Assembly: GCA_039715185.1 (NCBI GenBank) | Contig: JBDLIA010000005.1 | Location: 6,587-70,586, forward strand | Reading direction: 5' to 3' | DNA length: 64,000 nucleotides | Origin: Gemmatimonadota bacterium | GTDB lineage: Bacteria > Gemmatimonadota > Gemmatimonadetes > Longimicrobiales > RSA9 | Shown here: one piece after another, positions 30,901 to 58,224 of the stretch | How the letters are laid out: each line of letters begins with the position of its first letter | Numbering within the stretch: the first letter of the stretch is position 1 | Translations under genes and position numbers: made by a program | The notes under the pieces: model-generated | The model's database searches: none | The model's input: the letters and a program-made list of their open reading frames with translations, nothing else | What the model was told of the DNA's origin: nothing

Positions 30901-31413
30901 TTCCACGTCCCCGTCGCGGCGCCCCGCCCTGCGGGAGTCCTCGTTGGCGCGGTCGTCCACGTCCGCCTCGCGCTGAGCGCGCCGGGCGGCAGCAGCCGCC
31001 CGGGCGGCAGCGGTGTCGGCGGCCGCGTCCGCGGCGGAGTCGGGCGCGACCGCGGCTCCCCGCGCTCCCGCGTCGGGCACGGACACGGGCGCCGCTCCAC
31101 CGGCCCGAGCCATCCGCTCGCCCGCGCGCGGTCCGTCTCCCAGCCGCGGCACCCGCGGCTGCGGCAGGCGCGCTTCGGCCAACCGCCTCCATGCGGTCGC
31201 CCAGTCCGCGAAGCGGGGCCAGAGATCGGGCCTGGTCCAGCCGGGCACGGCGGGCACCGTCACGACGAACGGCGTCTCGAGTGTCGCCAGTCCCAGCCTG
31301 GGGCCCTGCGGAGCCTCACCGAGCGCCGGGTGTAGGAGTCGCGGCAGCCGGACCGTATCGCCCGCTACACGCACGTCCTGGGCGGAGGAGGAGGAGGGCA
31401 CCCCGATGGACAC
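24940..31413 (-). CDS. sprA: SprA-like giant cell-surface/outer-membrane protein (T9SS translocon Sov/SprA family)
   Basis: 2157 aa. After an Ala/Arg/Pro-rich region comes the SprA-type N-terminal block (NINVFYQGFEDEVLRRVEVGDVNLRLPRSRYMTQGVPAGNFGFKAEGQLGPIDFQAVWAQQKGD), then a long beta-rich sequence. The true start is probably upstream of GTG 31413 (see finding). Confidence 0.8.
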   Translation of the reverse strand: MSIGVPSSSSAQDVRVAGDTVRLPRLLHPALGEAPQGPRLGLATLETPFVVTVPAVPGWTRPDLWPRFADWATAWRRLAEARLPQPRVPRLGDGPRAGERMARAGGAAPVSVPDAGARGAAVAPDSAADAAADTAAARAAAAARRAQREADVDDRANEDSRRAGRRDGDVEVDQPPAPPPIGARPAPQTPGPTVAPGDTLPGDSVVYLVREPVIEADTTSVGPQLPGALGELRNLGIRLRGRTDMKGEWNKIEPCNIFVALKCESGLVPRLSPDVQFQLQVGGTISERVHVDVDFDQAREFDATNNINVFYQGFEDEVLRRVEVGDVNLRLPRSRYMTQGVPAGNFGFKAEGQLGPIDFQAVWAQQKGDITEREFVFGGGGTGDDVVLDQTVVWDDETFLSGLFFYLVPPDSLAGAPHVDALALQPLDVPAVVRPSGAFGIQVYRAEGAGNLTAAQQADQNLFRALAVAGEGADRVEHAGLFRQLEPTEDFEIHSSGLWIVLRSRLTAAEALAIAYVTETGDTIGTLNAETVSAQGTTPELLLLRGPEDIHQPGRPTWRQEMHNVYRVDSSNEVERGSVALTISLGEESAGATFITTNDGTRATYLRFFGLDEDNPVDEVDEAQLFRPQELFGQDAKVSGVFVMFPTLEPFARPGPVVSLGLGADDAASLLGQNANLVIYDDPDPIDRANGSRFRLNFTYRVRSAGGTKSSFNLGAIGIREGSERIFVGSQRLIAGEDYTIDYEVGTLNLVNPDAIFGGSPNAQLRATWEQQPLFQIAPKSVFGMNARYQAGQLGQINVLGIFQSERSLVNRPQLGLEAGALFVGGVTGDLDLPSSFLDRAMGAIPGLRTAGRSAIRLTGEVAMSTPNPNSQGDTFLDDFEATNEALLSTISNSWRWGSAPSWTPGAGTFLPTSLGTDNAGSLTWQSQILDPATGQVGGRIRSVDIDRSLNVIGTDTGEPAMFMVITDTLPFGQRSWRSITTVLSTSGRDLTQSEFLEFYVRRDDGVDFAFIWDIGTVSEDAFVFDGLGNLSGAYPDGEPWGQGILDQEAELGFAVWGDSLDARGLWNQECEGDRQSVFAIGSLGANCTRGNGLNDSEDLDGNGALLSSDGAHFRFTVPLGEESPFLVRDRSQTGTNFELYRVPLRAGLAEAVGGANESTWRFIRHVRLTVSVDDPNQSAPVITLARPKLLGGRWPKREGHGLIDGLTGAGEGASSGSAAVSVAPVSRVNEPAYVSPPNTSDRAQDVTAGVGTSRQEINEKGLRLTYQDVGPGERGEVFFRYLNRPRDLLEYQRVRMWALPRAGNFGDGGDQSLLIKFGTDGSNYYLRRTRLSEPVTSDALGRGDWVDVPMDFQEWKDLRVMAEDSLIRRVAPPDPNGPIVVGSGDIVPDPGTAAGDGRIEIWNADSTYAVVLQDRARAPNLASIRELSLAVFNGGDFPSSGEVWFNELRLDQPDTRSGVATDVNLAINAADFMSANVSFSSESERFQRGLDSRPDFEADRTLSVNSRMQLGNFAPSSWGLDLPVQVAHARTDTDPFFLNRSDITARGLEGLREIGSRTTNVGVSLRKATPTANPWVSAVVDGLSLNANWRSSESSASTTRSEASGFTAGAGYNRRPGAREFDPTPTFLEDALRWVLPGFVERSTIFRNFTEARFRWSPSALTLQTTFQDTEARTFRFDKILELPDDTLFAPTSSPARSLRSQARIGLQPFRSMDATFAITSNRDLLEPFLATQSGAVQAALEQERGEFLGLGVGWERNRSMSTGFNFNPELFEWLRPGLSWNTQYSADRNPSFVAFEVQDEDSVARLQRQFRGQRALGRQFSFSPSVLGAVLLGTAGEDAGLLRRGLVGLISRLDDIDLRWQDGLSSQFDRNLASPEVGYQFGFGDLEDFRTVGGSVARTVRETGSFSVDGGFDLPLGSALSVGYQTGDSRALADRGGDQDTESRTWPDVNWRWSRVPVPGFLRGKVGSMNLSAGFRVTERQNRFGSTTQSRTSEDTSVPLRFSMSLLNGMSVNYNGSLSEGVSKDPTGETQRRNDRHNVEMRGSLDAPEAWESFSQPIHATLGYRRDSQFSCRTRFAGQTEEADTCTATSDFVTQTLSVQLDTVLNRINLGANLSYTDRQSSTGIREGNRQVLFTLFGQFDFQFGRFPSAVGLRR

Positions 31414-31637
31414 GAGCGCCAGCAGGACACACGTCCACGGGACGCGCGTGCGCGCGCGCTCATGCGCCTGGGTGGCGGCCGGGGAGCGTCTCGGTGAAAT
31501 CTTCAGACCTGCGGCGGCTCTGGGAGTCGCTTGTCGCTCGGAGAAGCCCGGAATATGCTAAGGTTCATCGCTCCCTTCAACGCCCCTCCCGTGTGGCGCG
31601 GAAGCGCTCCGGAATACGACCATCAAACGCGTCTGCC

Positions 31638-45056: not shown

Positions 45057-45557
45057 ATGTCTCTGTCCGAAGCGATGGCCGCCGAATGGGCCCACGAAAC
45101 TTCCACGACCCGCCGGGCGCTTGAGCGCGTTCCACCCGCGTCCCTGGATTGGCGGCCCCACGAGAAGTCCCGGACCATGGGCGAGCTGGCGAGCCACGTC
45201 GCCAATCTCCCCATGTTGGTCGGCGTGACGCTGCGCGGCGACGGCTTCGATCTGGCGGCCAGGGGCAGTCCGCTGGCGGCCTTCGACTCGGTGGAGGCAA
45301 TGCTGGCCGCGTTCGACGGCCACGTAGCCGAGGCGCTGGCGACGATCCGGGACACGCCGCAGGAGGCGTGGATGGATACGTGGACGCTCCGCTACGGTGA
45401 AAAGGAGGTGTTCTCTGCCCACCGGGTGGCGGCGATGCGCGGCTTCATCATGAACCACGCCATCCACCACCGCGGACAGTTGACGGTCTACCTGCGGCTG
45501 GCGGGTGCTGCGGTGCCGCAGATCTACGGCCCCAGCGCCGACGAGCCGGACTTCTAG
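45057..45557 (+). CDS. DinB-family (DinB_2-like) four-helix-bundle protein
   Basis: 166 aa. HETSTTRRALERVP...DWRPHEKSRTMGELASHV...NHAIHHRGQLTVYLR. The TAG stop is part of the CTAG that begins the downstream palindromic element. Confidence 0.85.
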   Translation: MSLSEAMAAEWAHETSTTRRALERVPPASLDWRPHEKSRTMGELASHVANLPMLVGVTLRGDGFDLAARGSPLAAFDSVEAMLAAFDGHVAEALATIRDTPQEAWMDTWTLRYGEKEVFSAHRVAAMRGFIMNHAIHHRGQLTVYLRLAGAAVPQIYGPSADEPDF

Positions 45558-45723
45558 TGGTGGACGGTAGCAGATGATAGTTAAGCACCGAGAGGGGCGA
45601 GGCGCCCGATCCGGGGAGGCGGGAGGACGAGTAATAGCAGCGCTATTGCGAGGAGTCCCAACGACCCCGGGCGGGATGCATCGCCCCTCGAATGCTAAGT
45701 ACTCACCTGTTACAGTCCACTAG
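45554..45723. repeat. ~170-nt extended imperfect palindrome bounded by CTAG and by inverted copies of the CTAGTGGACTGTAACAG terminus (MITE-like element or structured-RNA candidate)
   Basis: The left end CTAGTGGTGGACGGTAGCAG is a degenerate copy with a TGG insertion. The right end is CTGTTACAGTCCACTAG. Internal pairings are GAGGGGCGA (45592-45600)/TCGCCCCTC (45681-45689) and CCGGGG (45611-45616)/CCCCGG (45665-45670), with an apical AATAGCAGCGCTATT (45633-45647). Confidence 0.8.
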
Positions 45724-45741
45724 TGTACCGTTGCACACTAG
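45720..45741. repeat. second exact copy of 22-mer CTAGTGTACCGTTGCACACTAG
   Basis: Identical to 34453-34474 and in the same orientation. Its terminal CTAG contains the TAG stop (45740-45738) of the - strand TPR gene. Confidence 0.9.
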
Positions 45742-48200
45742 GGGGCGGTGGGGGCGCTCGCGTCGAGGGAGTCGAGCGCGCGGCGTGCGTCCTCGACCAG
45801 CGGCTGCAGCTCGGGATCTGCGTTCGACCACAGGTCCAGGAAGCGGACGTAGTGTTCCCGCGCCCGCTCGTCTCGACCCAGGCGCGCGTGCGCCTGCGCC
45901 TGACGCAGCTCCGCCATCGGATAGTAGAGCAGCTCGAAGGGGCCCAGCTCCACCAGGTGCTCGTACCAGGGCAGCGCCTCCTCGAGTCGGCCCAGCTCGA
46001 ACAGCAGCTCCGCCTGCACGAAGCGTTCGCGCGCCTGCGCGAAGTAAGGCGACGCCATGGTCTGGCCGTACCACACCTCGCGCCGCGCGCCGTCCAGTCT
46101 CGACAGCGCCGGCAGGGGCTCGCCTGCCAGCCATTCGCGCTCCGCCTCGACCGCCGCCGCCAGGTCGAGGTTGAGCGAGCCGGCGCCCCGCGGCACGGCC
46201 GCCTCCCGAAGCCTGGCGGCCGCGGAGTCGACGGCCGGCCCATCTCCTAGGCGCGCTCCGGCCAGCCCGTCGAGGTAGGCTACGATCACGTGGTGGAGCC
46301 CGTCGAGCGCGCTGAACACGATCGACGGACTGCCCGACGGTGGGATCGCCTCGACGTCCAGCGCCGTCAGCCGGGCGCGCGCCGCCTCGAGGGCCCCGTC
46401 CGGCGCGACCGCGAACGGAGCCAGCGCCAAGAGCAGCTCGAACTCGGCCGCGACGCCCGGGTTCTCCGACGACAGCGAATCCAACTCCGCCCTCGCGTCG
46501 CGCAGCCGCCCACGCGCCGCCAGCACGTGCGCCAGCCACGAGTGACCCAGGGTGTGCCCGCCCAGCGATCGTCCGGGGGACGTGAGCAACCGGCTGATCC
46601 GCTCGGCGCCGTCCAGGTTGCGGGCGTACGTAGCGACGTCCCAGGCCGCGAGCGCGATGCTCAACTCGGAGGTCTCCGGTTGCGCCAGCGCGGCGAGGCT
46701 GCGCTCCTGCGCGAGCGAGTCTCCGCGCGCGAACGCCCTCAACGTGGCGATCTCGAGCGCGCGATCGCCGGTGGGGTTGATGCGCAGGAAGCGATCGCCG
46801 AGCGAGTCCAGCTCCGCCAGCTTCCCCTCGGCCGCCGCGACTCGGGCGAGGTGCAGCAGCGACGTGGAGTGCTCGGGGTCCATGGAGAGCACCTGCTCGA
46901 ACGCCTCCCGCGACGCCGCGAACGATCCTCCCCGCAGGGGCGCCGCGTGGATCAGGATCTCGGCCAGGTCGATGAGCGCTTCGCGCTCCTCGGGGTAGAG
47001 CGAGAGGATGGACCTGTACAACCGGGCCGCACGCTCGTTGTCGCCGGTGCGGCGTACCTGTAGCGCCTCGAGCAACTCCCGCTCGCGGTCGGCGAGCCGG
47101 TCCAGGGACCGGACCGCGCGGTCAGCCGCCCAGTCGGCCAGGTCGCCCCGCAGGTTCCACTCCGCGAGCAGGCTGAGGCGGTAGTAGGCGAGCGCGAACG
47201 CGGTGTCGATGGAGACCGCCCGCTGGAACGCCTCGGTGGATTCGTCGAAGCGTCCTCGCCGATACAGGCGCTCCCCCTCCAGGAATGCCTTGAGCGCATC
47301 GATCGAGTCCGTGGTGACGGCGGCGATGCGCTGCACCCGCGCGGTGGGCCCGCCGCCCATCTCGGCGAGAAGGCCGGCGGCCATCCGGTCGACCAGGTCC
47401 AGGACCTCCTCGGCCGGGCCCTCCACCGTGCTCCTGCTCAAGGGCTCGTCGTCTCCACGCCGGTACACGGCCGCGCTGAGCTCCAGCCGGCCGCCGGCCG
47501 CGAAGATGTCGCCCGTGACCCACGTACCGGCGTTGAAGCGGCGTGCCGCCGCCATTCCGGGCTCGACCTCCGGCGCCTCGCGACCGTCGAGGAAATCGAG
47601 GACCGAGCGGTCGTCCACGGTGCGCAGGTCCCCGGCGCCGTCCAGCTTCCTGGTCAGCAGGTTGACCATCGCGTCGCCCAGGTAGGCGTACTCGGCGCCG
47701 CCCCGGACCGTGAACGGAACCACCGCCACCTTGTCCGGGTCGGCGTCGGCTGCGACGTCGACCAACGCGGCGCCCGCCCTGGGGCCCCCCGAGAACGCCA
47801 CCCAGGCGGCCGCGAATACGCCCCACGCGGCGAACGCCAGGATGCCCACGCCGATGGCATTCTTCCAGGTGAGCAGCTTTCCGACGGAGGCGGGGAAGAG
47901 CGGGCGGGGCGGAGATGACGCCGGCTGGGTGGCCTCCGCACCGGCCCGAGCGGGGGAAATACCCGGCTCTGCTCTGGAAGAAAGCGAGCGCGCCTGGGCG
48001 ATCGCCGTGGCGAGCACGATGGGCAGGCCGACGACCAGCATGCCCAGGCCCACCGCCGGAAACCAGTCGGGCAATCGCAGGACGGAGGTGAGCACGTCGA
48101 TGGCCTCCAGAGCCACCCAGCCAGCCGCCAGGTAGATGGCCAGCACGCGCCACACGTCGCCGTGCTTGAGTCTTTCCAGGAGTCGTTTGCCGAAGGACAC
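45738..48200 (-). CDS. membrane-anchored TolB-N-like + TPR repeat protein
   Basis: GTG start. N-terminal helix pair (VWRVLAIYLAAGWVALEAIDVLTSVLRLPDWFPAVGLGMLVVGLPIVLA). Then VAVVPFTVRGGAEYAYLGDAMVNLLTRKL and multiple TPR-like helical repeats to the C-terminus. Confidence 0.75.
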   Translation of the reverse strand: MSFGKRLLERLKHGDVWRVLAIYLAAGWVALEAIDVLTSVLRLPDWFPAVGLGMLVVGLPIVLATAIAQARSLSSRAEPGISPARAGAEATQPASSPPRPLFPASVGKLLTWKNAIGVGILAFAAWGVFAAAWVAFSGGPRAGAALVDVAADADPDKVAVVPFTVRGGAEYAYLGDAMVNLLTRKLDGAGDLRTVDDRSVLDFLDGREAPEVEPGMAAARRFNAGTWVTGDIFAAGGRLELSAAVYRRGDDEPLSRSTVEGPAEEVLDLVDRMAAGLLAEMGGGPTARVQRIAAVTTDSIDALKAFLEGERLYRRGRFDESTEAFQRAVSIDTAFALAYYRLSLLAEWNLRGDLADWAADRAVRSLDRLADRERELLEALQVRRTGDNERAARLYRSILSLYPEEREALIDLAEILIHAAPLRGGSFAASREAFEQVLSMDPEHSTSLLHLARVAAAEGKLAELDSLGDRFLRINPTGDRALEIATLRAFARGDSLAQERSLAALAQPETSELSIALAAWDVATYARNLDGAERISRLLTSPGRSLGGHTLGHSWLAHVLAARGRLRDARAELDSLSSENPGVAAEFELLLALAPFAVAPDGALEAARARLTALDVEAIPPSGSPSIVFSALDGLHHVIVAYLDGLAGARLGDGPAVDSAAARLREAAVPRGAGSLNLDLAAAVEAEREWLAGEPLPALSRLDGARREVWYGQTMASPYFAQARERFVQAELLFELGRLEEALPWYEHLVELGPFELLYYPMAELRQAQAHARLGRDERAREHYVRFLDLWSNADPELQPLVEDARRALDSLDASAPTAP

Positions 48201-48256
48201 TCAGGCCTCGATCCGCAGGGGTCGCGCGGGCAAGATCGGAGGCCGGCGCGGGTGTA

Positions 48257-50104
48257 TCAAGAAGCGACGCCGTCCAGCACGCTCAACGCCACCTCGACGC
48301 GCCCGAACGGCGCGCTCACCTGCACGCCCTGGATCACGCCGCGGACCGCCGCCAGGCATTCGCGGGCGATCGCGAGGCCCTCCTCCAGCGCGTCCTCTTT
48401 GCCGCGCGCGCTGGCCGCGCGCATGCGCTCGATGACCGGGTCCGGCACGCTGATCCCCGGCACCTCGTTGGCCAGGAACTCGGCGTTGCGTGCCGACACC
48501 AGCGGCCATATGCCGGCCACAACCGGAATGCTCATGTCCCGCTCCTGGGCGCTGCGCACGAAGTCCAGCAGTTGGGCGGGGTCGAAGACCGGCTGCGTGA
48601 CGCAGAACTCGGCACCCGCGTCGACCTTCCAGTGGAAGCGCTCGAGCTCGTGTTCGGCGTCCACTGCGCTGGGATTGGCGGCCACCCCGATCGCGAACTC
48701 CGTCGGCTCGCCGATGGCGTTGTTCCCGGGGTCCAGCCCGTGGTTGAGCCGCGACACCAGGTTGGTGAGGCCGATGGAGTCGATATCGAAGACCGCGGTG
48801 GCGTCCGGGTACGGGCCCATCTTGGGCGGGTCCCCCGTGACGATCAGCAGGTTGCGAACCCCCAGCGCGTGCGCGCCCAGCAGGTCCGACAGCATGCCCA
48901 GCAGGTTGCGGTCCCTACAGCTGTAGTGGACGATCGGCTCGATGCCGCCTTCCCGCTGGATCAATGCGGACGTGGCCAGCGCGCTCATGCGCATCTGCGC
49001 GCGAGGGCCGTCCGGTACGTTGACGCCGTCGACGCCGGCTTCGCGCAGGGTCCGCACGCCCCCGAGCATGCGCGCCGGGTCGATCCCCTTGGGGGGAACG
49101 ATCTCCACCGAGGTCACGAATTCACCACGGGCGAGCTTCGCGCCGATGGAGGAGCGGTCTGCCAGCGGTACCGGCTCGCGCGGAGCGGGGCCGCCGACGG
49201 GCATTTCTCCCACGGACACGGTGACGCGGGGGGATCGCATCCGCACCACATCGGCCATGCGCCGCACGTGCTCCGGCGTGGTGCCACAGCAGCCGCCGAC
49301 GAACCGCACGCCCGCGTCGAGCAGTCGCCGCGTGTACTTGGCGAAATACTCCGGCGAAGCCATGTACATCTGGCGGCCGTGCACCTCGCGCGGCAGTCCC
49401 GCGTTGGGCTGCGCGGACAGCGGCACGCCAACCACGGGGGCCATCCGATCAACGGCCTGGAGCACTCCGTGGGGACCGACCGAGCAGTTCAGCCCGACCA
49501 CGTCGGCGCCCCACTCCGACAACCTCGCCCCGCACACCTCCGGGGCGGTGCCGTACGCGGTACTCCCGTCCTCGCCGATGGCCATCTGCGCGAACACCGG
49601 CAGGTCGGTCAACTCGCGAACCGCCTCCAGCGCCTGCCTGATCTCCTCCAGGAACGAGAAGGTCTCGAGCACGAAGCCGTCGACCCCTCCCTCCAGCAGT
49701 CCTTCCACCTGTTCCCGGAAGAACGTCCGTGCCTCGTCGACGGAGGTGGGACCGTAGGGTTCGATCCGTATCCCCAGCGGACCTATGGAGCCGCCGACGG
49801 CCACGTCCTCGGCGACGGCCCGACGCGCGATCTCCGCGGCGCGCGCGTTGATCTCGCGCACCCTGTCTCCGAGGCCGTGCTGGGTCAGCTTGACGCGATT
49901 GGCTCCGAAGGTATTGGTCTCGACGATCTCCGCGCCCGCGCGCGCATAGGCCTTGTGAATGTCGCCCACGATCGCCGGCTCGGTGACGTTGAGCTCGTCG
50001 TAGCAGCGATTGATGAACACGCCGCCCGAGTACAACATCGTGCCCATTCCGCCATCGAATAGGTGCGGGCGGCCGTCTTCGATGAGCGCGCGGATGTCGC
50101 TCAC
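48257..50104 (-). CDS. bifunctional homocysteine S-methyltransferase / 5,10-methylenetetrahydrofolate reductase-like fusion
   Basis: N-terminal Hcy-binding domain (FDGGMGTML...GGCCGTTPEHV). C-terminal MTHFR/MetF-like domain (SVEIVPPKG...IVHYSCRDRN...LLIVTGDPP). GTGA overlap with the upstream permease stop. Confidence 0.88.
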   Translation of the reverse strand: MSDIRALIEDGRPHLFDGGMGTMLYSGGVFINRCYDELNVTEPAIVGDIHKAYARAGAEIVETNTFGANRVKLTQHGLGDRVREINARAAEIARRAVAEDVAVGGSIGPLGIRIEPYGPTSVDEARTFFREQVEGLLEGGVDGFVLETFSFLEEIRQALEAVRELTDLPVFAQMAIGEDGSTAYGTAPEVCGARLSEWGADVVGLNCSVGPHGVLQAVDRMAPVVGVPLSAQPNAGLPREVHGRQMYMASPEYFAKYTRRLLDAGVRFVGGCCGTTPEHVRRMADVVRMRSPRVTVSVGEMPVGGPAPREPVPLADRSSIGAKLARGEFVTSVEIVPPKGIDPARMLGGVRTLREAGVDGVNVPDGPRAQMRMSALATSALIQREGGIEPIVHYSCRDRNLLGMLSDLLGAHALGVRNLLIVTGDPPKMGPYPDATAVFDIDSIGLTNLVSRLNHGLDPGNNAIGEPTEFAIGVAANPSAVDAEHELERFHWKVDAGAEFCVTQPVFDPAQLLDFVRSAQERDMSIPVVAGIWPLVSARNAEFLANEVPGISVPDPVIERMRAASARGKEDALEEGLAIARECLAAVRGVIQGVQVSAPFGRVEVALSVLDGVAS

Positions 50105-51978
50105 GCGTCGCGCCGCGCCAGCGCCAGCCCCGGGTCCGACCGGCTCACGCGCCGGGCCGGGCCGATCGAGGCGCCTACGCTGATCACCATCACCGCCAGC
50201 GCGAGCGACCCCATGAGCCCCGCTCCCACGCCGCCTAGCGCGGGCAGCCGGTCGGCCAGGGTCTGGTTCACGGCCATCAACATCAGCAGACCCGCGACCA
50301 GGCCGCGAGCGCCGACCCCGGCGCCGCGCAGGACGATAGATCGGGCGAGCGAGCGCGGGCTCGCGCCCAGCGCCGCGCGGATGCCGAATTCCCAGGAGCG
50401 CGCACGCACGTCCTCGCGCATGGTGGTTACCATGCCGATGAGGGACAGGATCAGCGCCGGCAAGGCGGCAGCCGCAAGCAGCAGCGCGAGCCAGCGCGGC
50501 GCCGCCGCGGTCTCGGCCAGGAGAGCTACCAAGGGCCGCGCTTCAGATACCCGGACGCGCGCGCTCGCTGGCAACCCGGCCGCGAGCGCCTCCGCCAGGA
50601 CGGCATCAACCTCGGCCGGCTCCTCGACGCCCTGAAGCGCGACGTCGAACCGAGACGGCAGCGCCTGGGCCGCGGGCAGGTAAATCGAGGGCACCGGATC
50701 GCCGGCGGCGGCGAAGCCCCCTTCCGGCAGATCCGGCACGACCCCCACGATGGTGGACCAGGCCGGCTCCCGGGCGCTCGCCATGACGCGCTTGCCGATC
50801 GCGACGCCGTCGACGAATCGGCGCGCGTATGACTCGCTGACGAGCACCACGCCCGGAGCGTCCGGAGCGTCCTCCGTACCGAAGGAACGCCCCTCCAGCG
50901 CGGCCTGGCCGTGCGCCTCGAAGAACCCCGCGCTCACCGCGGCCCTGCGGGCGTCGACGCTGATGATGTCGACCACCATCCCTCCGGCCGGGCACGCCCC
51001 GCAGTACGTCGTCACGTAGTCGCGTGCGCCTTGTCCCGTCAGCGTTCCAGGGCTGGAGATGGACACCGCGCTCGCTCCCGTGGCCGTCGACAGCGACTCG
51101 CGGATTCCAACGTGCAGCAGCGCGAGAGCCTCCTCGCCCACGCCCCCAAGCTCCACACGCGCCACAGCCGTGTCACCGACCTCGAACCCCGTCCAAGCGT
51201 CCCGCTGAGGGGATAGGACCGCCCAGCCCAGGACGAACACGGTGCCGACGACAGTCACCAAAGCGGCGATCTGGACGCTCGCCATGGAGCGCCGGAAGAA
51301 CCCCACCGCCGGATCCTCGGTGACGCGAGCGCCAATACTCAGCAAGGCCGGCAGGCGCCGGCGGCCCAAACTCGTGGACAGCAGGCCCAGCAGCGCCGCG
51401 CCCAGCGCGAGCAGGGCGCCGGTGAGCGCCGCGGCGGGCGCCGACGGGGTCGCGCCGACGCGCGCGAGCGATTCCGGAAGCGTGGCCAGCAGCCCCACCG
51501 ATACGGCCCAGCCCGGTCCGCCGCCCAGAAGCGCGCCCGTGCCGGTAATCAACACTAGCGGGCCGACGGATCGGCGCAGGCGCACCCACCGGGGTTCTCC
51601 CAGAGACCGGCGGGTCGCGCTGGCGCTCCGCCGGGCGAGACCGTGCTGCGCCCAGCCGGCGAGTGCGTTGGTGCAGGTGGCCAGGACGGCCGCGCAGAAC
51701 ACCCCCGCGAAGAGCGTTAGGAGAGCCTCGAGCCCCTCGGCCTGAAGGGAGTCCACGGAGCGGGCGAAGGCCGTCCGACCGAACACACCGCCGTCGGCGG
51801 GCACGGACTCGGGCCGCAAGCCCCAACCCAGCCCCGCGCTCGAGCCGGCGCCGCCGGCGAGCACCGTCCGCCCGAGCTCGAACAGGGCCACCGCGGCCGC
51901 CGCGCTGACGAGCAAGCTCGCGGTTCTCAGAGGGGAGGCCAAGAACGGACGCAGCGCGGCCGGCGTGCGGGACTTCAT
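50101..51978 (-). CDS. duplicated FtsX-domain (MacB/ADOP-like) ABC-type permease without adjacent ATPase
   Basis: ATG 51978 overlaps the metH stop (ATGA). The C-terminal FtsX domain is clear (REDVRARSWEFGIRAALGASPRSLARSIVLRGAGVG...). There is a degenerate N-terminal copy (RRSLGEPRWVRLRRSVGPLVLITG) and a MacB_PCD-like periplasmic middle part. Confidence 0.75.
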   Translation of the reverse strand: MKSRTPAALRPFLASPLRTASLLVSAAAAVALFELGRTVLAGGAGSSAGLGWGLRPESVPADGGVFGRTAFARSVDSLQAEGLEALLTLFAGVFCAAVLATCTNALAGWAQHGLARRSASATRRSLGEPRWVRLRRSVGPLVLITGTGALLGGGPGWAVSVGLLATLPESLARVGATPSAPAAALTGALLALGAALLGLLSTSLGRRRLPALLSIGARVTEDPAVGFFRRSMASVQIAALVTVVGTVFVLGWAVLSPQRDAWTGFEVGDTAVARVELGGVGEEALALLHVGIRESLSTATGASAVSISSPGTLTGQGARDYVTTYCGACPAGGMVVDIISVDARRAAVSAGFFEAHGQAALEGRSFGTEDAPDAPGVVLVSESYARRFVDGVAIGKRVMASAREPAWSTIVGVVPDLPEGGFAAAGDPVPSIYLPAAQALPSRFDVALQGVEEPAEVDAVLAEALAAGLPASARVRVSEARPLVALLAETAAAPRWLALLLAAAALPALILSLIGMVTTMREDVRARSWEFGIRAALGASPRSLARSIVLRGAGVGARGLVAGLLMLMAVNQTLADRLPALGGVGAGLMGSLALAVMVISVGASIGPARRVSRSDPGLALARRDA

Positions 51979-54900
51979 CGATCGTCCTCCGCGCTGAAAT
52001 ATTTCGCGTCGGGGTGGTGCACGACCAGGGCGGCGGTGGACAGCTCCGGCACCAACGCCCCGGCTTCGGTCAGGTCGAGCCCCAGCCGCTCGCGCGCCGG
52101 CAGCAAGTCGAACAATCGGAAGTGCTGTTTGTGGTCGGGGCACGCCGGGTACCCCCACGAGTAACGCAACCCGCGTTCGGGCGCGATGCCCAACTCCCGA
52201 CGCATGCGCCGGTGTACCCACTCGGCGGCGGCCTCGGCCAGGCGCACGCCGAAACCGTGCAGGAAGAACCCCTCGGAGTATTCGCCCCCCTTCATCAGCG
52301 CTTCGGAGCGCTCGAGCAGGGCGTCGCCCACGGTCACGACCTGGAAGCCGACCACGTCCGTCGGGGCGCCATCCCGGGGGCGGAAATAGTCCGCCAGACA
52401 CAGCCGCTCACGGCCCGGCTGGCGTGGAAACTCGAAGCGCGTCGACTCCGCGAGCGGGTCTTGCGGGTCGAACACCACGAGCGCGTCACTCTCGGACGCC
52501 GCCGGGAAGAACCCGTACGCGGCGCGCGTGCGCAGCCACCCGCCGGAGATCGCGTCCTGCTCGTAGCGCCGCAGCCGAGGCTCGTACTCCTCGCCCACGA
52601 GTTGCTCCCACTCCTCGCCCTTGGCGTTCTTGGCGCCCCAGTGCAGCCGGTAGAGCGTGTTCAGGTCGATCAGTTCGAACAGCTCGGAGGGCGGGATGCG
52701 GTCGATGACCTTCACGCCGGCAAACGCGGGCGTGGGAACCTCGATGTCAGCCGCGGGCCGTGCGTCGACAACGGCGGGCGCCAACTCCGCCGCCCGCGCC
52801 TTGAGCTCCTCCCGGCGCGCGGCACCTTCGCGGATGTCGCGCAGACGCTCCGTGCGGAAAGCGTCGCGGCGCGTCGGATCGACCAGCGCGTCCACCGCCT
52901 CCAGGCCCGCAAACGCGTCCTTGCAGTACCAGATGCCCGCCTCGTACACAGCCGCAGTCCCGGGCTCCACCGCCCCGGTCTCGGGGTCCAGGAACGCCGC
53001 CCGACGCACGAACGACGGGTTGATCGCGGCGCCTCCGCAGAGCAGCGGATAGCCTAGCCCGCGCGCGGACAGCTCCTGCACGCACGCCGGCATCTGGCGC
53101 GAAGTGGATACCAGCAGAGCGGACAGTCCGATGGCGTCCGCGCCCACCTCCTCGGCCTTGGCGATGATGTCGTTCACGGGCACCTGCTTGCCCAGGTCGT
53201 GCACGGCGTAGCCGTTGTTGGCCAGGATGGTGTGGACCAGGTTCTTGCCGATGTCGTGGACGTCGCCGAAAACGGTCGCCAACACCACGATCCCTTTGGC
53301 CTGCCCGTCCAGCCGCTCCAGATAAGTCTCCAGCCTTGCCACGGCGCGCTTCATCACCTCGGCGGACTGCAGCACGAAGGGCAGGATCAGCTCGCCCGAG
53401 CCGAACTTGTCGCCCACTTCCTTCATGGCGGGCAGCAGCACGTCGTTCAGCGTGGCGACCGCGGCCGCGTCTTCCTTGGTACCCGACAAGTCCTCCGGCG
53501 AAACCCCCGCGCGACCCGCGATGGCGGCGTCCACCAGCTGCTCGATCCCGTCCTTCTTGCGGTGCAGGATCTTCCAGTGAATGGCCTCGTCGGGGGCCAT
53601 CTGGACGGTGGGGTCGGCGGCCTCTTCGGCGGTAGCCTCGACGCCCTCGAAGTGCGCGATGAAGCGCGCCAGCGCGTCCGGACGGCGGTCGAGGATCAGG
53701 TCGTCGGCGAGCTCCCGCTCCTCGTCGTCGACCTCGGCGTAGGGGGTGACGTGCGCGGGGTTCACGATCGCCATGTCCAGCCCCGCCTCCACGCAGTGGT
53801 GCAGGAAGGCGGAGTTGAGCGCGCCGCGCGCATGCGGCTGGAGGCCGAACGACACGTTGGAGACGCCCAGGCTCGTGAAAACGCCGGGAAGCTCGGCCTT
53901 GATGGCGCGGATGCCCTCGATGGTCTCGACGGCCGAGCGGCGGAATTCTTCCTCTCCGGTCGCCAGGGTAAACGTGAGCGCGTCGAAGATCAGGTCCTCG
54001 GCCGCGAGGCCGTGCTCGTCCACGGCGATTCCCGCGATCCGGCGCGCGACCTCCAGCTTGCGCTCGGCGGTCTTGGCCATGCCGACCTCGTCGATGGTCA
54101 GCGCCACCACCGCCGCGCCGTGCTCGCGCGCAACGGGCAGCACCGCGTCCGCCTTGGCGCGCCCCGCCTCCAGGTTGATCGAGTTGACGGTAGCGCGGCC
54201 GGGATACTGCTCGAGCGCCGCCCCCATCACGTCGACCTCGGTGGTGTCGACGACGAGCGGCGTTTCCACCGCCTGTGCGAGCCGCTTGACCAGCTCGCGC
54301 ATCTGGTCCGCCTCGTCGGCGCGCTCGGTGAGCGCCACGCACACGTCCAGCAGGTGGGCGCCGCCCTCCACCTGCCCGCGCGCGATCTCCAGCACGCCGT
54401 CCAGATCGTCGGCCAGCAGCAACCGCTTGACCGCCCGCGATCCCTGCGTATTCACCCGCTCCCCGATCAACGTGGGCGCCGGGATCTGCTTCATGTCGAA
54501 CGCTGTCATCGCGCTGGCCAGGCGCGGCGGCGGCGCGGGCGAGCGGGGCGCGGGCTTCGCGCCGCCCACGCGCTCCACGACCTGGCGGATGTGCTCTGGC
54601 GTGGTGCCGCAGCAGCCGCCGACTACGTTGACGCCGAACTTCACGACGAACTCCTCGTGCGCGTCGGCCAGCGCTTCCGCGGTGAGCGGATAGACCGCCT
54701 CCCCGGCCTCGTTGTGCGGGATGCCGGCGTTGGGGATGACGCTGATAGGCAGCGGCGCGTTCTCGCACAGCCAACGCACCGCCTGCCGCATGTGCTCCGG
54801 CCCGGTGGAGCAGTTCAGGCCGATCGCGTCCACGCGCAGCGCGCGGAGCACGGTGGCGGCGGCGGCGATGTCGGTCCCCAGCAGCATGCGGCCCGAGGTG

Positions 54901-55502
54901 TCCAGCGTGACCTGCGCCTGGATCGGCACCGTGCGGCCCGACTCCGCGAAGTAGCGGCGGATCCCCGCGACCTGCGCCTTGACCTCGAGCATGTCCTGGC
55001 TGGTCTCGATGAGCAGGACGTCCGCGCCGCTCTCGACCAGCCCGCGCGCTTGCTCGGCGAAGACCTCGGCGAGCTCGGCGTAGGTCACGTCGCCCAGGCC
55101 GGGCTCCGACGTGCTGGGCAGGAAGCCGCTCGGGCCGATGCTGCCGGCGACGAAGCGCGGTCGGTCCGGCGTGGAGAACCGATCCGCGACGCTGCGGGCG
55201 AGCGCAGCGGCCGCGGCGTTGATCTCCACGATCCGGTCCTCGAGCCCGTACTCCTTCATGGTCAGCCGGTTGGAGCGGAACGTGTCGGTCTCGATCACGT
55301 CGCAGCCCACCTCCAGAAAGGAGGCGTGGACCCGCTCGATGGCATCCGGGCGCGAGATCACCAGGTAGTCGTTGCAGCCGACGAGCGCGTCGCCTCCGAA
55401 GTCGGCCGCGCCGAGCCCGAGCGTCTGGATGCTCGTGCCCATCGCCCCGTCGTAGACCAGGACGCGATCGGCCAGGCTCGTGATGTAGCGCGACTCGCTC
55501 AT
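51975..55502 (-). CDS. metH: cobalamin-dependent methionine synthase
   Basis: Hcy domain (YDGAMGTSIQ...GGCCGTTPEHI), pterin-binding domain, B12-binding DxHxxG (GDVHDIGKN) and an AdoMet reactivation domain. Start set at ATG 55502 (GGGGAG upstream). The ORF-track GTG 55532 lies inside the leader hairpin. Confidence 0.96.
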   Translation of the reverse strand: MSESRYITSLADRVLVYDGAMGTSIQTLGLGAADFGGDALVGCNDYLVISRPDAIERVHASFLEVGCDVIETDTFRSNRLTMKEYGLEDRIVEINAAAAALARSVADRFSTPDRPRFVAGSIGPSGFLPSTSEPGLGDVTYAELAEVFAEQARGLVESGADVLLIETSQDMLEVKAQVAGIRRYFAESGRTVPIQAQVTLDTSGRMLLGTDIAAAATVLRALRVDAIGLNCSTGPEHMRQAVRWLCENAPLPISVIPNAGIPHNEAGEAVYPLTAEALADAHEEFVVKFGVNVVGGCCGTTPEHIRQVVERVGGAKPAPRSPAPPPRLASAMTAFDMKQIPAPTLIGERVNTQGSRAVKRLLLADDLDGVLEIARGQVEGGAHLLDVCVALTERADEADQMRELVKRLAQAVETPLVVDTTEVDVMGAALEQYPGRATVNSINLEAGRAKADAVLPVAREHGAAVVALTIDEVGMAKTAERKLEVARRIAGIAVDEHGLAAEDLIFDALTFTLATGEEEFRRSAVETIEGIRAIKAELPGVFTSLGVSNVSFGLQPHARGALNSAFLHHCVEAGLDMAIVNPAHVTPYAEVDDEERELADDLILDRRPDALARFIAHFEGVEATAEEAADPTVQMAPDEAIHWKILHRKKDGIEQLVDAAIAGRAGVSPEDLSGTKEDAAAVATLNDVLLPAMKEVGDKFGSGELILPFVLQSAEVMKRAVARLETYLERLDGQAKGIVVLATVFGDVHDIGKNLVHTILANNGYAVHDLGKQVPVNDIIAKAEEVGADAIGLSALLVSTSRQMPACVQELSARGLGYPLLCGGAAINPSFVRRAAFLDPETGAVEPGTAAVYEAGIWYCKDAFAGLEAVDALVDPTRRDAFRTERLRDIREGAARREELKARAAELAPAVVDARPAADIEVPTPAFAGVKVIDRIPPSELFELIDLNTLYRLHWGAKNAKGEEWEQLVGEEYEPRLRRYEQDAISGGWLRTRAAYGFFPAASESDALVVFDPQDPLAESTRFEFPRQPGRERLCLADYFRPRDGAPTDVVGFQVVTVGDALLERSEALMKGGEYSEGFFLHGFGVRLAEAAAEWVHRRMRRELGIAPERGLRYSWGYPACPDHKQHFRLFDLLPARERLGLDLTEAGALVPELSTAALVVHHPDAKYFSAEDDR

Positions 55503-55513
55503 CGACTCCCCAT

Positions 55514-55547
55514 AGAAAACCCCCGCGACCACTCCTGTGGTGCGGGG
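55514..55547 (-). terminator. intrinsic-terminator-like hairpin + U-tract in the metH leader (candidate attenuator / riboswitch expression platform)
   Basis: The - strand reads CCCCGCACCAC-AGGA-GTGGTCGCGGGG-G-TTTTCT (11 bp with one bulge). It ends 8 nt upstream of the GGGGAG SD-like sequence, about 11 nt before the metH ATG. There is no upstream - strand gene for it to terminate. Confidence 0.55.
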
Positions 55548-55868
55548 ATCGGTACGGGTCCTCGTCCGCTCTGTCCCGGCACTTTAGGCGTTTGGTTCGG
55601 GCGGGCAAACCGCCCCGGGGGTCTCAAGCGGCCGCAAATGTCTCCCCCGGCCCAGCGAGGCGCGGCGTCGCTGACCTGCCCGACGACGCACCGACTGTGG
55701 TTCAAAGCTAGGCAAGGGGGATCGCCGGTCAAGGGAATCCTGGGAGAACGTGGCGAGGTGGCGGCGATGGAAAACTCCGCGGGCGAGCGATGCGTTACTA
55801 TGTAGACCTGGATTGATCCTGCAGACACAGCCCGCACCGGCGCCGCCCTTCAGACCAAACGGCTCTCG

Positions 55869-56963
55869 ATGAATCGCTCCTCCGCCGCGCGCGGGCCCCG
55901 AAACCGAACCAGACGCCGTCCGGGCGGGACGATCCTGCTCCCGCTGCTCGCGGCGTCGCTCATCGGCAGCGCGTGCGGGGACGGCGGCGGCGACCCCCTG
56001 GAGCCGAAACCGCCCCCTGGGCCCGTGATCGGATTCTTCGGGGGGGATACCACGCTCGCGCTCTCGAAGGCGGCCGGTGCGGCCATCGCGCTCGCCGCGG
56101 CGTCGCGCGGCTTCGCCTTCTTCGACAACTTTCTCCCCTGCCCCCCACGTGGCCTCATCGACTACGCGGATCGGGGCAGCACGACTATCGCGGCAGCGCA
56201 TTCCTGCAACCTGGGGGACGGAGTCGTGCTCGACGGAGAGCTGGAAGTCGTGTCCGCCACCGACTCCCTTGGCGTGATCGTGGGCGTGGAAGTGACCGGC
56301 AGCGCGACGCTCAGGACCGCGGAGGGACTGATCGCGCTACCCGACATGAGGGTTGACGGCATCGATGTCGCGGCGGGCGCTGGGCGCGCCGCCGCGATCG
56401 AGCCCGACTCCGCGACGATCGACGCGCTGGGCAAGACCGTGGCCTATGACGCGCGCGGTGCGCCTGTCGCTGTCTTCAGCGCCTCGCCCTCCATCGACAT
56501 CCCGAACCCCGGTAACGAGCTCGCCGCGCTCTCCGATGACGACGTACGCCGCGTGGTGTTCGACCCGCTCCTGGCGCTGTCGGGGATCCTCTTTGGCGAG
56601 CAGCTGGAGTTCGGCCGCGGGCCGCACGAGCACACCTTCGATTGCGGTTCGTTCGCTGTTCTGCCCGACACGCTGTCGGGGCTGACGGGGATCACGGCCT
56701 CGTTCACGGACTGCCCGCTCACCTCGGGCACGCGCTTGAGCGGGGACTTCTCGGTGCGCTGGACCGCGTTCGCCGAGCCGCTCCTGACGATGGCGATGGA
56801 GGGCGCCCTGACCATCACCGGCGGCTTGCCGAGCATCCGGCTCAACGCATTCGAATGGAACGTCGAGGATGCCGGTCAGTTCGACACCGCGTCGTTCCGT
56901 GGACGCCTGGTGGTCGATACGGTCGGTCGCGATTACGCCTTCCAGGTGCCCATCAGCGATTGA
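55869..56963 (+). CDS. hypothetical lipoprotein
   Basis: ATG start and a signal peptide with lipobox (ILLPLLAASLIGSAC). No recognised domains. Confidence 0.65.
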   Translation: MNRSSAARGPRNRTRRRPGGTILLPLLAASLIGSACGDGGGDPLEPKPPPGPVIGFFGGDTTLALSKAAGAAIALAAASRGFAFFDNFLPCPPRGLIDYADRGSTTIAAAHSCNLGDGVVLDGELEVVSATDSLGVIVGVEVTGSATLRTAEGLIALPDMRVDGIDVAAGAGRAAAIEPDSATIDALGKTVAYDARGAPVAVFSASPSIDIPNPGNELAALSDDDVRRVVFDPLLALSGILFGEQLEFGRGPHEHTFDCGSFAVLPDTLSGLTGITASFTDCPLTSGTRLSGDFSVRWTAFAEPLLTMAMEGALTITGGLPSIRLNAFEWNVEDAGQFDTASFRGRLVVDTVGRDYAFQVPISD

Positions 56964-56977
56964 GGTCGAGGGCGGCA

Positions 56978-57159
56978 CTAGCAGGTCGCTGAAAAAGGGG
57001 AGTGCGGCCTGCTCCCTTCGGGTTGGGGCGGCACGGGGCCGTCTGACGTCGTTAGCGCTCCTCCCCGATACGCAGCGGTATCGCCTCGTCGCGCTGCCTT
57101 GCATCCGACCCCGTGGCGCTCCCAACGCGGCTCGCTACCCTTCTTCAGCGACCTGCTAG
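56978..57159. repeat. 182-nt extended imperfect palindrome with 22-nt CTAG-initiated terminal inverted repeats (MITE-like element or structured-RNA candidate)
   Basis: CTAGCAGGTCGCTGAAAAAGGG (56978-56999) matches the reverse complement of 57138-57159 at 21/22 positions. An inner stem pairs 57022-57041 with 57106-57126. The apical hairpin is CGATAC-GCAGCG-GTATCG (57066-57083). Confidence 0.85.
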
Positions 57160-57261
57160 GCGGTGGGGTCGATGCGGCGCCGCCCGGAGCCTCGAAGGTG
57201 AACGTACGGCCCACCACGCCCTCGTTGCGGGCCGGACCGGCCAGGTCTAGGCTGTCGGACC

Positions 57262-58224
57262 ATGTCCTCTCGCCTACCCGATTCGAGCCCACCCGGACGC
57301 CCCAATGCGCGTGCGACCGCGGTGGCAGTAACCGTCCTGGCGGTGTTCATCGCCGCGCTGACAGGAGGGTACCTGTACTCGGCGAGTAGGGACGCGCCAC
57401 GCACCACACCCACGTCTACCGCGTCCGCCAAATCGCGAGCGGAGGAGCCTCTCGAGAGGGCGCGGGACGTGCCCGGCGCGGTGCACGCGCGCTTGGCCGC
57501 GCGCGGCGCCTGGGGCCTCGCGCTGGACGCGATCGAGTCCCCGCCTCTCGAACGGTACCGGTGGGCGGTCATCGGCTATTGGATGGGGGCGCTCGACCGG
57601 GAGGTGATGGATCGCGCCCGCGCCGGAATGGAAGACGGCGCAGCGGGGAATGAAGACGAGGGCGCCGAGCTGGAGTGGCTGGACGGCATCGCCGCCGCCG
57701 TAGCGGGCGACAGCGATGCGATGGACCGCGCCCGCCTGAGCCTGACCGAATCGCCGGCGCCGGCATCGACCGACCTGGAGAGATCGCTGCGCGCGTTTCA
57801 ACTGGCCCTGGACGACGAAGAGCTGCGCGCGGCGAGGCTCCTTCGCAGGCTGGAGGAGGACCGGCAAGGCAGACCTATCCCGGTGCCAGCAGAGGACTCC
57901 GCCCACCCCTTCCTGACCCCTGTCGACAGGCTCGCCGCCGCCCACTGGTTCATCCGGCACGGCAAGGCGAACGACGCGCTGCCGCTGCTGGGATGGTGGG
58001 AGCGCCCGGGCGCCTCGCGCCCGGAAGCGGCGGCGGCCGACCTCGCGCTGTCGTCCTTGGACTACCTGCAGCGCGCCCGCGCGCTGCGTGAGATGGGAGA
58101 CGAGGCCGCCGCCGCGCGCTACTTCGACGCCTTCGTCCGCAGCTACGACCTGCCGGTCGACGCCCACCGGCGGTGGGTCGAAGACGCACGAGAGGCGGCC
58201 GCTGCCGCAGGCCGAGATCCCTAG
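57262..58224 (+). CDS. hypothetical membrane-anchored protein, Ala/Arg-rich helical
   Basis: ATG start and one N-terminal TM (AVAVTVLAVFIAALTGGYLY). The rest is helical-repeat-like. No family recognised. Confidence 0.55.
   Translation: MSSRLPDSSPPGRPNARATAVAVTVLAVFIAALTGGYLYSASRDAPRTTPTSTASAKSRAEEPLERARDVPGAVHARLAARGAWGLALDAIESPPLERYRWAVIGYWMGALDREVMDRARAGMEDGAAGNEDEGAELEWLDGIAAAVAGDSDAMDRARLSLTESPAPASTDLERSLRAFQLALDDEELRAARLLRRLEEDRQGRPIPVPAEDSAHPFLTPVDRLAAAHWFIRHGKANDALPLLGWWERPGASRPEAAAADLALSSLDYLQRARALREMGDEAAAARYFDAFVRSYDLPVDAHRRWVEDAREAAAAAGRDP

Follow-up and report, generated by a model that had tools for sequence, protein, structure and literature searches.

Two hairpin-forming elements that share a conserved core lie 11 kb apart in a 64,000-nt stretch of contig JBDLIA010000005.1 from a Gemmatimonadota bacterium (assembly GCA_039715185.1; hereafter the window), and the question that they raise is whether they are mobile DNA, a conserved structured nucleic acid, or both. 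We refer to the element at 56978-57159 as E2, to its partner at 45554-45723 as E1, and to the strand carrying the core as the sense strand. The original prediction had posed a functional structured RNA family and an old, diverged MITE (miniature inverted-repeat transposable element) family as alternatives; our analysis supports parts of each at the same time. The explanation that we lean towards, with slightly better than even confidence, is that E1 and E2 are diverged members of a widespread family of non-autonomous MITEs, which would be mobilised in trans by DDE transposases of the IS5/IS1182 type and would carry the core as a functional RNA.

Both elements have the anatomy of a MITE. Between the termini of E2 (56978-56999 and 57138-57159), 21 of 22 positions are complementary, as are 92% of those in the extended arms of 25 nt. 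The refined limits place E2 at 56982-57155 (174 nt), between CTAG at 56978-56981 and CTAG at 57156-57159, both read directly and representing a probable 4-bp target duplication; since CTAG is palindromic, the window copies could also have duplicated only the 2-bp TA inside it. The left arm of the terminal inverted repeat (TIR; CAGGTCGCTGAAAAAGGGGAG, 56982-57002, + strand) pairs with the right arm (57135-57155, + strand), which was identified from the fold and an inverted-repeat search. An inner stem pairing 57022-57041 with 57106-57126 had been described before; in the fold and the covariance model, the stem closing the core runs from a 5' strand in sense orientation at 57100-57126 (-) to a 3' strand at 57023-57047 (-). 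The core itself (57048-57099, -) reads AGGC-AGCGC-GACGAG-(apical hairpin CGATAC/GTATCG)-GAGGAG-CGCT-AACGAC, and its apical hairpin at 57066-57083 can be read from the sequence as CGATAC-GCAGCG-GTATCG. On the sense strand, a side hairpin CCC-GAA-GGG (57014-57022, -) lies 3' of the core hairpin and forms a three-way junction with the closing stem in the minimum free energy fold. The refined limits of E1 are 45558-45719 (162 nt), with CTAG at 45554-45557, which contains the TAG stop codon of a DinB-family gene (45057-45557, +), and at 45720-45723, again read directly. Its 5' arm (45558-45616, +) holds a decayed TIR of the GTGTGGTG subfamily and a second GA loop, CACCGAGAG, at 45586-45594; its core (45617-45665, +) reads AGGC-GGGAG-GACGAG-(TAATAGC AGC GCTATTG)C-GAGGAG-TCCC-AACGAC; and its 3' arm (45666-45719, +) holds the partner of the second loop, CTCGAATG, at 45687-45694 as well as a GATGCA bulge, both arms being assigned from the fold and by comparison with the family.

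The predicted folds of both elements are highly significant. The folding energy of E2 was -112.7 kcal/mol on the - strand (z = -9.1) and -103.7 kcal/mol on the + strand (z = -7.0), the core-sense strand thus being the more stable by 9 kcal/mol, and that of E1 was -98.1 kcal/mol on the + strand (z = -8.9); in all three cases, none of 200 shuffles reached the native energy. The pattern GACGAG-N14-26-GAGGAG-N4-AACGAC was matched exactly twice in the window, at 45626-45665 (+) and 57048-57090 (-), and never in 100 dinucleotide-preserving shuffles of it. A covariance model of the core scored 68.2 bits for E1 and 56.5 bits for E2 (E approximately 1e-13, although E-values from this short-calibrated model are rough), while the next-best match in the window scored 15 bits. 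The termini, stems, apical hairpin and shared hexamers of E2 were all recovered where the original prediction had placed them.

E1 and E2 belong to a large family. Scanning a genome collection of 596 Gb with the 18 fixed bases of the core yielded at least 120 loci, mostly chance matches, as expected, and approximately 23 of the 120 loci listed were true relatives in which an apical hairpin lies between the first two hexamers inside a long rod. The consensus extended from these relatives was (U/A)AGGC-N4-C-GACGAG-hairpin-C-GAGGAG-N4-AACGAC-G, and a metagenome scan with AGGC added to the pattern yielded at least 120 loci, practically all of them true relatives, giving at least 144 instances overall; L-numbers below are labels of collected loci that carry or resemble the elements. 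The hosts include Gemmatimonadota, five Pseudomonas genomes, Woeseiaceae, Tahibacter, a betaproteobacterium, Polyangiaceae, Sandaracinaceae, Tepidisphaeraceae and Phycisphaerales, and thus represent at least four phyla (Gemmatimonadota, Pseudomonadota, Myxococcota and Planctomycetota), with several Pseudomonas species (P. rhizoryzae RY24, P. subflava YIM B01952, and Pseudomonas sp. BMS12 and EpS/L25) and Tahibacter aquaticus DSM 21667 as cultured carriers. The core pattern had no match in viral contigs, indicating that this is not a phage element, and blastn against the PLSDB plasmids gave no match either with one copy or with a 2.9-kb concatenate of 14 diverse copies. Monomers are approximately 165 nt long. 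The nearest collected relatives of E1 (L070, L190 and L209, approximately 76% identical) are Gemmatimonadota copies of the GTGTGGTG type, and E2 is locally approximately 80% identical to one half of the two-core elements L141 and L240, E1 and E2 being of different TIR types.

No described RNA family accounts for these sequences. Rfam searches of the whole window at the gathering threshold gave no match, and at E <= 10 the scans of E2, E1, a Pseudomonas-type copy and a two-core element returned only chance noise at the level of miRNAs and snoRNAs, whereby every described Rfam family was rejected. Nor did we find a description of the family in Rfam 15 or in the full-text literature, including searches with core sequence strings, ISfinder being outside the scope of the search.

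The core is the best-conserved part of the element, whereas the TIRs differ completely between subfamilies. It comprises approximately 60 nt, namely (U/A)AGGC, a 4-bp helix, C-GACGAG, an apical hairpin of 5-8 bp, C-GAGGAG, the partner of the 4-bp helix and AACGAC-G. We tested this structure on 76 distinct cores, considering the helices Pa (at the top of the rod), Pb (between the two N4 segments) and Pc (in the apical hairpin), against 500 shuffles. Paired cells amounted to 83.1% compared to 60.3% in the shuffles, cells changed on both sides numbered 353 compared to 130, with such changes in 18 of the 21 pairs, and the covariation score was 0.534 compared to 0.168, a value that no shuffle reached; sliding the partners by one to three columns lowered the score to 0.11 or less. 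Pb occurs as GCGG/CCGC, GGAG/CTCC, AGTC/GACT, GTGC/GCAC, GGGA/TCCC (E1) and AGCG/CGCT (E2), and Pc as TAGC/GCTA, TACT/AGTA, ATGC/GCAT, GACTC/GAGTC and TACC/GGTA, among others. The pattern of conserved loops with differing yet pairing stems, from which a structured family had been suspected, therefore extends well beyond the two window copies. Moreover, the covariance model alone found 33 further cores outside the search pattern, all of them second cores of two-core elements, which keep AGG..CGACGA..AGGAG..ACG and have compensating helices of their own.

Read antiparallel, the loops CGACGAG and CGAGGAG align as C-G, G.A, A.G, C-G, G.A, A.G and G-C, and can be read as two tandem sheared G.A pairs, a geometry deduced from sequence; the commonest Pb variant, GCGA/GAGC, adds a third tandem G.A. 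As the complementary strand would carry C.T mismatches instead, the fold is strand-specific. G-U pairs are frequent in the core helices, as at pair 29-53, which 24 sequences have as UG and 15 as GU. Many TIR subfamilies share a second purine loop, 5' CCGAG opposite 3' CGAA(U), which recurs 28-31 nt before and 23-27 nt after the core, and corresponds in E1 to CACCGAGAG facing CTCGAATG, approximately 30 nt from the core. This recurrence indicates that the whole rod, and not the apex alone, is the conserved fold. The GATGCA bulge in the 3' arm is conserved within the Gemmatimonadota subfamily.

The family at the same time bears the marks of mobile DNA. TIR pairs occur in all subfamilies, those of E1 being decayed yet recognisable, and at least ten TIR types (GTGTGGTG, GTGTCCTG, GAGCCAGTCC, GTGCACCG, GAGCACCG, GGAATC, CAGGTCGC and others) share the same core. 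Near-identical copies stand in unrelated flanks in metagenomes and in Pseudomonas sp. EpS/L25, and many metagenome copies lie at contig ends, the usual signature of repeats. CTAG was present at both ends, 165-167 nt apart, in 33 of 117 distinct copies, and most subfamilies other than GAGCC are CTAG-flanked. The GAGCC subfamily has non-palindromic direct repeats instead (TTA..TTA at L166, L197 and L200; TAA..TAA at L134), which amount to a TNA target duplication of 3 bp. The old MITE family of the original prediction, with its CTAG or TA duplication, is consequently supported by the TIRs, the flanks and the dispersed copies, together with the insertion sequence (IS) and the empty site described below. 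That prediction had also held that near-identical copies flanked by target duplications would reduce the shared core to simply inherited sequence; such copies exist, but the conclusion does not follow, because the core is conserved and covaries across TIR subfamilies and phyla.

The flanks and TIRs bear on the enzyme that may move these elements. CTAG flanks are compatible with IS630/Tc1-mariner elements, yet one subfamily has the 3-bp TTA/TAA duplication and the matching IS is of the IS1182/IS5 type. This IS, at L126 (2086-3471, 1386 bp), encodes a frameshifted transposase with DUF772 and DDE_Tnp_1 domains, best matched by NCBIfam NF033551 (IS1182) and NF033581 (IS5). Its TIR, CAGGACGCTGAAAAA, is identical to that of E2, CAGGTCGCTGAAAAA, at 14 of the first 15 bases, and it is flanked by CTAA/CTAG and contains no core, indicating that the core is cargo and not a remnant of the IS. 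MITEs derived from IS5 have been reported to duplicate CTAG/YTAA on insertion (PMC3189936). When 1.46 Mb of loci were searched for convergent cores or TIR pairs 0.8-2.2 kb apart, the L126 IS was the only candidate obtained; an apparent autonomous-parent pair at L142 was a chance match within a kinase gene. The L126 IS is placed exactly between two MITE copies, at their CTAA/CTAG ends. Element ends regenerate the target and seem to attract further insertions, which could explain how cores gain new TIRs.

Mobility is further supported by an empty site. We considered a syntenic relative (L241, an ENA contig) with a DinB gene that is 63% identical, followed by convergent TPR and MTHFR genes. Here, DinB ends with ...GATTTCTAG, likewise with TTCTAG at the stop, and the stop of TPR is reached after another 40 nt with the CTAG site empty, whereas the window has ...GACTTCTAG, E1 and CTAG within a gap of 180 nt. 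CTAG is itself rare, with 28 sites in the window compared to 93 +/- 9 expected from dinucleotide shuffles (3.3-fold under-represented); four of the 28 are the ends of E1 and E2, and several others are open reading frame (ORF) ends or stop codons (43250, 45738, 58221, 59452 and 60711). This scarcity and placement suffice to explain why the elements lie at gene ends. In Pseudomonas-type and Longimicrobiales copies (L020, L099, L201, L212 and L044), one flanking CTAG is often CCAG or CTGG, a change that either very-short-patch-type T:G repair or a general avoidance of CTAG would be expected to cause, which suggests that target duplications decay in a directed way. At L142 (105-520), a GAGCC-type copy lies at the 3' end of rpsT, encoding ribosomal protein S20, and its TIR provides the last codons and the stop.

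At approximately one quarter of the loci, the elements are dimers of 280-330 nt with two cores 110-160 nt apart (L141 4807-5135, L240, L002 4962-5238, L110, L188, L208 and approximately 30 more). The cores are convergent (+ then -) in all of the approximately 35 cases, without exception, so that the 5' half of either strand has a sense core. The second of the two is a distinct paralogue that has diverged, for example AGGAAGAGCGACGAAG-CGGGTC...GACCCG-TTGAGGAGCGATGACGAC. Between the cores there is often a small hairpin of the C-GNA-G type (for example L002, L110, L141 and L219), which resembles the side hairpin of E2, with loops TTC, TCC, GCC and AAA also found and its orientation variable. By this comparison E2 is a one-core derivative of a dimer, consisting of a TIR stem, the core hairpin, the CCCGAAGGG side hairpin (57014-57022, - strand) and a TIR stem, and E1 is of the simple rod type.

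The two strands of the element are not equivalent. For most copies, folding of the sense strand is more favourable than that of the antisense strand by 10-40 kcal/mol, and in the arms outside the core sense-strand mismatches of the G.T type outnumbered those of the A.C type by 278 to 142, or by 55 to 17 when counted by element. The arms of E2 have two sense-strand wobble mismatches and no antisense ones, and the weak orientation hint taken earlier from mismatches that are A.C on the + strand and G.U on the - strand thus holds. Relative to genes, insertion is random in orientation: with gene calls resting on codon-position G+C only, the sense strand ran in the direction of the upstream gene in 48 cases and against it in 37 (p = 0.28), and in that of the downstream gene in 29 and against it in 42 (p = 0.15), in agreement with a coarser count. 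Convergent, divergent and tandem intergenic sites are all used, and an all-against-all BLASTP of the ORFs within 3 kb of 143 loci revealed no recurrent neighbouring protein family. A cis role for the neighbouring genes is thus unlikely.

How might such an element work? We propose that a transposase recognises the TIRs over approximately 15-20 bp and inserts the element into the rare CTAG, which would be duplicated, or into TTA/TAA in one subfamily; both window copies would then lie at gene ends because CTAG is mostly found at TAG stop codons in this 69% G+C genome. The interior, which is not IS-derived, would be carried as cargo in the form of a conserved rod-like fold with the core at its apex. 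Since the fold is strand-specific, the working form would be single-stranded, and the element would act as its folded sense strand, most likely as RNA from read-in transcription. Three features favour RNA, namely that convergent dimers give a sense core from either direction of transcription, that G-U pairs are frequent in the core helices, and that tandem G.A pairs, when stacked, form a classic surface for protein recognition. Most likely, then, the active form is RNA rather than single-stranded DNA, the core binds a protein, and the function benefits the element; the GA platform would be a recognition module serving the amplification or persistence of the element and not its neighbouring genes. 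As the same core occurs in many TIR lineages with host-neutral orientation, selection most plausibly acts on the element lineage, in that only copies with an intact core would keep amplifying or persisting.

Several observations weigh against this proposal. Neither E1 nor E2 contains a sigma-70-like promoter or an intrinsic terminator, such that an RNA would need read-in transcription, which would yield the sense strand at roughly half of the insertions only. Nor do tandem G.A pairs, G.T wobbles and the C-GNA-G mini-hairpin, all of them stable in DNA as well, distinguish RNA from single-stranded DNA. Part of the hexamer invariance in the collected set comes from the search patterns themselves, the shuffle statistics overstate significance because the sequences share ancestry, and intrastrand gene conversion in a DNA palindrome can yield part of the covariation without selection on the fold. 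Furthermore, no autonomous IS with matching TIRs was found for the subfamily of E1 or in the window's own genome, and, as the relative with the empty site is distant (DinB 63% identical), its spacer and that of the window cannot be aligned base for base.

Some of these points would suit the same MITE acting as folded single-stranded DNA, with rod and core forming a hairpin or cruciform during replication or transposition that either the transposition machinery or a structure-specific protein of the host would recognise. This we consider possible, though rather unlikely. Selection that seems to act on propagation, an orientation that is random relative to transcription, the lack of a promoter, and dimers that are symmetric, each strand having a sense core, would all fit such a form. 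Tandem sheared G.A pairs in a 5'-CGAG-3' context and mini-hairpins of the types C-GAA-G, C-GCA-G and C-GGA-G are stable in DNA, and the core and the mini-hairpin have motifs of these kinds; a C-GAA-G mini-hairpin had been entertained as evidence for a DNA form, but is not decisive, as loop and orientation vary. However, IS5/IS1182 DDE transposases are not known to require single strands in folded form, E1 and E2 are opposite in orientation 11 kb apart and thus have no consistent relation to a replication strand, and the frequent G-U pairs of the core helices, as at pair 29-53, are more typical of RNA.

A different emphasis, to which we likewise give only tentative credence, would take the entire rod of approximately 165 nt as a mobile structured nucleic acid, in effect a non-coding RNA or single-stranded DNA 'gene' on IS5-type ends, with the closing stem doubling as TIRs and with two to three GA loops at fixed spacing and a conserved apex. 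The GA platform would then be a specific recognition module, which might bind the transposase or a host factor and serve as a cofactor or regulator in the mobilisation of the element itself; alternatively, the rod could belong to a trans-acting new class of widespread bacterial non-coding RNA. Convergent dimers would present a sense core whichever strand is transcribed.

That the family consists of ordinary MITEs with a functionless interior, the core being inherited and the pairing arising from a palindromic origin and gene conversion between the arms, is in our judgement improbable. All hallmarks of a MITE are present, the invariance of the hexamers is in part an effect of ascertainment, and TIR positions 10-13 of the GTGTGGTG subfamily change together (TTCA/TGAA, GGCC/GGCC and CGCA/TGCG), which concerted evolution of the ends would also bring about. 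Yet a core that is conserved best while the TIRs differ completely is the reverse of the usual MITE pattern, and this conservation holds over four phyla, over two kinds of target duplication and in cores outside the search pattern. The 2:1 bias of G.T over A.C on the sense strand also counts against neutral decay and gene conversion, as both predict 1:1. In addition, the purine-purine loops are kept and not repaired to Watson-Crick pairs, and a second GA loop recurs at a fixed offset.

Decidedly improbable, in comparison, is a host-domesticated cis-acting RNA module in untranslated regions, serving in protection of 3' ends, as a processing site or in transcription insulation, as for REP, ERIC and Correia elements. 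E1 does follow the stop codon of DinB directly and is sense to that gene, many copies lie right beside stop codons, the L142 element supplies the end of rpsT, and 3' exonucleases would be blocked by a long hairpin rich in G+C. However, the CTAG target accounts for the position at stop codons, orientation is unbiased with respect to upstream and downstream genes and all kinds of intergenic site are used, the sense strand of E2 is antisense to the + strand genes on either side (55869-56963 and 57262-58224), and a benefit accruing locus by locus would not keep one core across subfamilies and phyla. Finally, a host chromosomal small RNA gene with two paralogues, whether 6S-like, as the outline had suggested, or another trans regulator, would match the size of approximately 180 nt, the closing stem, internal loops and terminal hairpin and the highly significant fold, but is very improbable given that neither the elements nor their relatives match any Rfam model including 6S at E <= 10, that the largest internal loops are 5 x 6 nt, drawable as non-canonical pairs and leaving no large central bubble resembling an open promoter, that promoter and terminator are lacking, that the multicopy, mobile elements are dispersed in unrelated contexts with target duplications, and that a relative lacks the element at the orthologous site, all of which already contradicts it.

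Other identities were rejected more directly. E1 and E2, although inverted, do not bound a composite transposon comprising 45734-56977, since their TIR subfamilies differ and the relative that lacks the element shows the same DinB-TPR-MTHFR order of genes. A REP/REPIN-RAYT system was dismissed because the sequence of the apical stem is not conserved and no recurrent protein occurs within 3 kb of the 143 loci compared. Integron attC sites were excluded upon inspection of the alignment, as the ends are CTAG plus subfamily-specific TIRs in place of R''/L''...L'/R' boxes (RYYYAAC/GTTRRRY) and GTTRRRY occurs only sporadically (L074) and inside the core, and by inspection only, none of K-turn, loop E, sarcin-ricin, SRP domain IV, hammerhead or attC fits the conserved positions.

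The surroundings are those of an ordinary chromosome. The ORFs crossing E1 and E2 have a G+C content at third codon positions (GC3) of approximately 0.73-0.78 compared to 0.83-0.87 in the measured adjoining genes and hence no codon bias. One of them, ORF 57156-57572 (-), has a stop overlapping the CTAG of E2 and was judged spurious (GC3 0.78; G+C at second positions 0.70), with no match in a Pfam search. The 11 kb between the elements contain TPR, MTHFR-homocysteine methyltransferase, FtsX/MacB and MetH genes. Specifically, 48257-50104 (-) encodes a homocysteine S-methyltransferase-MTHFR fusion, which is syntenic in L241, and 51975-55532 (-) a full-length B12-dependent methionine synthase, with an ORF for an FtsX/MacB-type permease between them. 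Elsewhere in the window, 24940-31557 (-) is an ORF of 2206 codons with a GC3 of 0.89 and a strong codon-position G+C bias, and the longest inverted repeat reported in the window (47797-47933, arms of 33 nt, 73% complementary and 71 nt apart) lies inside the TPR gene and is probably due to chance or related to coding.

MITEs are normally seen as inert debris of ISs, in which only the transposase-binding ends are expected to be constrained. Here the pattern is reversed, as the ends and the type of target duplication vary while a one-strand G.A module of approximately 60 nt is kept over at least four phyla. If this module is functional, it would represent a new, abundant and environmentally widespread structured RNA motif that is missing from Rfam or, alternatively, a DDE-type MITE that needs a folded single strand. 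The family is ordinary as a mobile element but unusual as a conserved structure, and carriers in culture make it directly testable. The elements also have practical consequences, since they break metagenome assemblies and, at stop codons, can alter C-termini, as for rpsT in L142.

Among known elements, MITEPsy1 of Pseudomonas syringae (PMC3189936) is similar in being short and non-coding, with IS5-type TIRs (GGAAGGTCTGAAAAAGCC compared to GCAGGTCGCTGAAAAAGG of E2), a CTAG/YTAA duplication and presumed mobilisation in trans, but it is 100 nt long, occurs in few pathovars and has no reported structured interior. The family described here, by comparison, has a length of approximately 165 nt, four phyla as hosts, several TIR types and a covarying GA-rich core that is absent from the L126 IS. 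REP and REPIN sequences, which depend on the RAYT transposase TnpA_REP, are likewise dispersed extragenic hairpin palindromes, and some apical hairpins of our family read GTAGC...GCTAC; however, REPs (approximately 35 nt) and REPINs (approximately 100 nt) have a conserved GTAG, no TIR or target duplication and a co-occurring RAYT gene, whereas in our family GTAG is not conserved (TACT, ATGC, GACTC and TACC occur) and target duplications are present. 6S RNA (Rfam RF00013 and relatives) shares the size of approximately 180 nt and the rod with a closing stem, but our family is mobile and multicopy and has no conserved synteny. Correia/NEMIS elements of Neisseria, ERIC/IRU of enterobacteria and RUP of pneumococcus are 100-170 nt long and intergenic, with TIRs and a TA-containing target, and form long hairpins when transcribed. 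Each of them is confined to one genus or family, with conservation reflecting recent amplification, and none is known to be characterised by a core that spans phyla and combines compensatory changes with tandem G.A pairs. By analogy only, a parallel to a covarying non-coding fold that travels with a transposable element and is first seen comparatively is offered by HEARO/omega-RNA (IscB), the reRNA of IS605-orfB/TnpB and the bridge RNA of IS110, structured RNAs on mobile elements that proved key to new mechanisms. Each of these sits beside a gene for a nuclease or recombinase that belongs to the element and acts together with it, whereas our family has no accompanying protein gene and no evident guide-like variable segment, a DDE transposase that would act in trans being the only enzyme linked to it.

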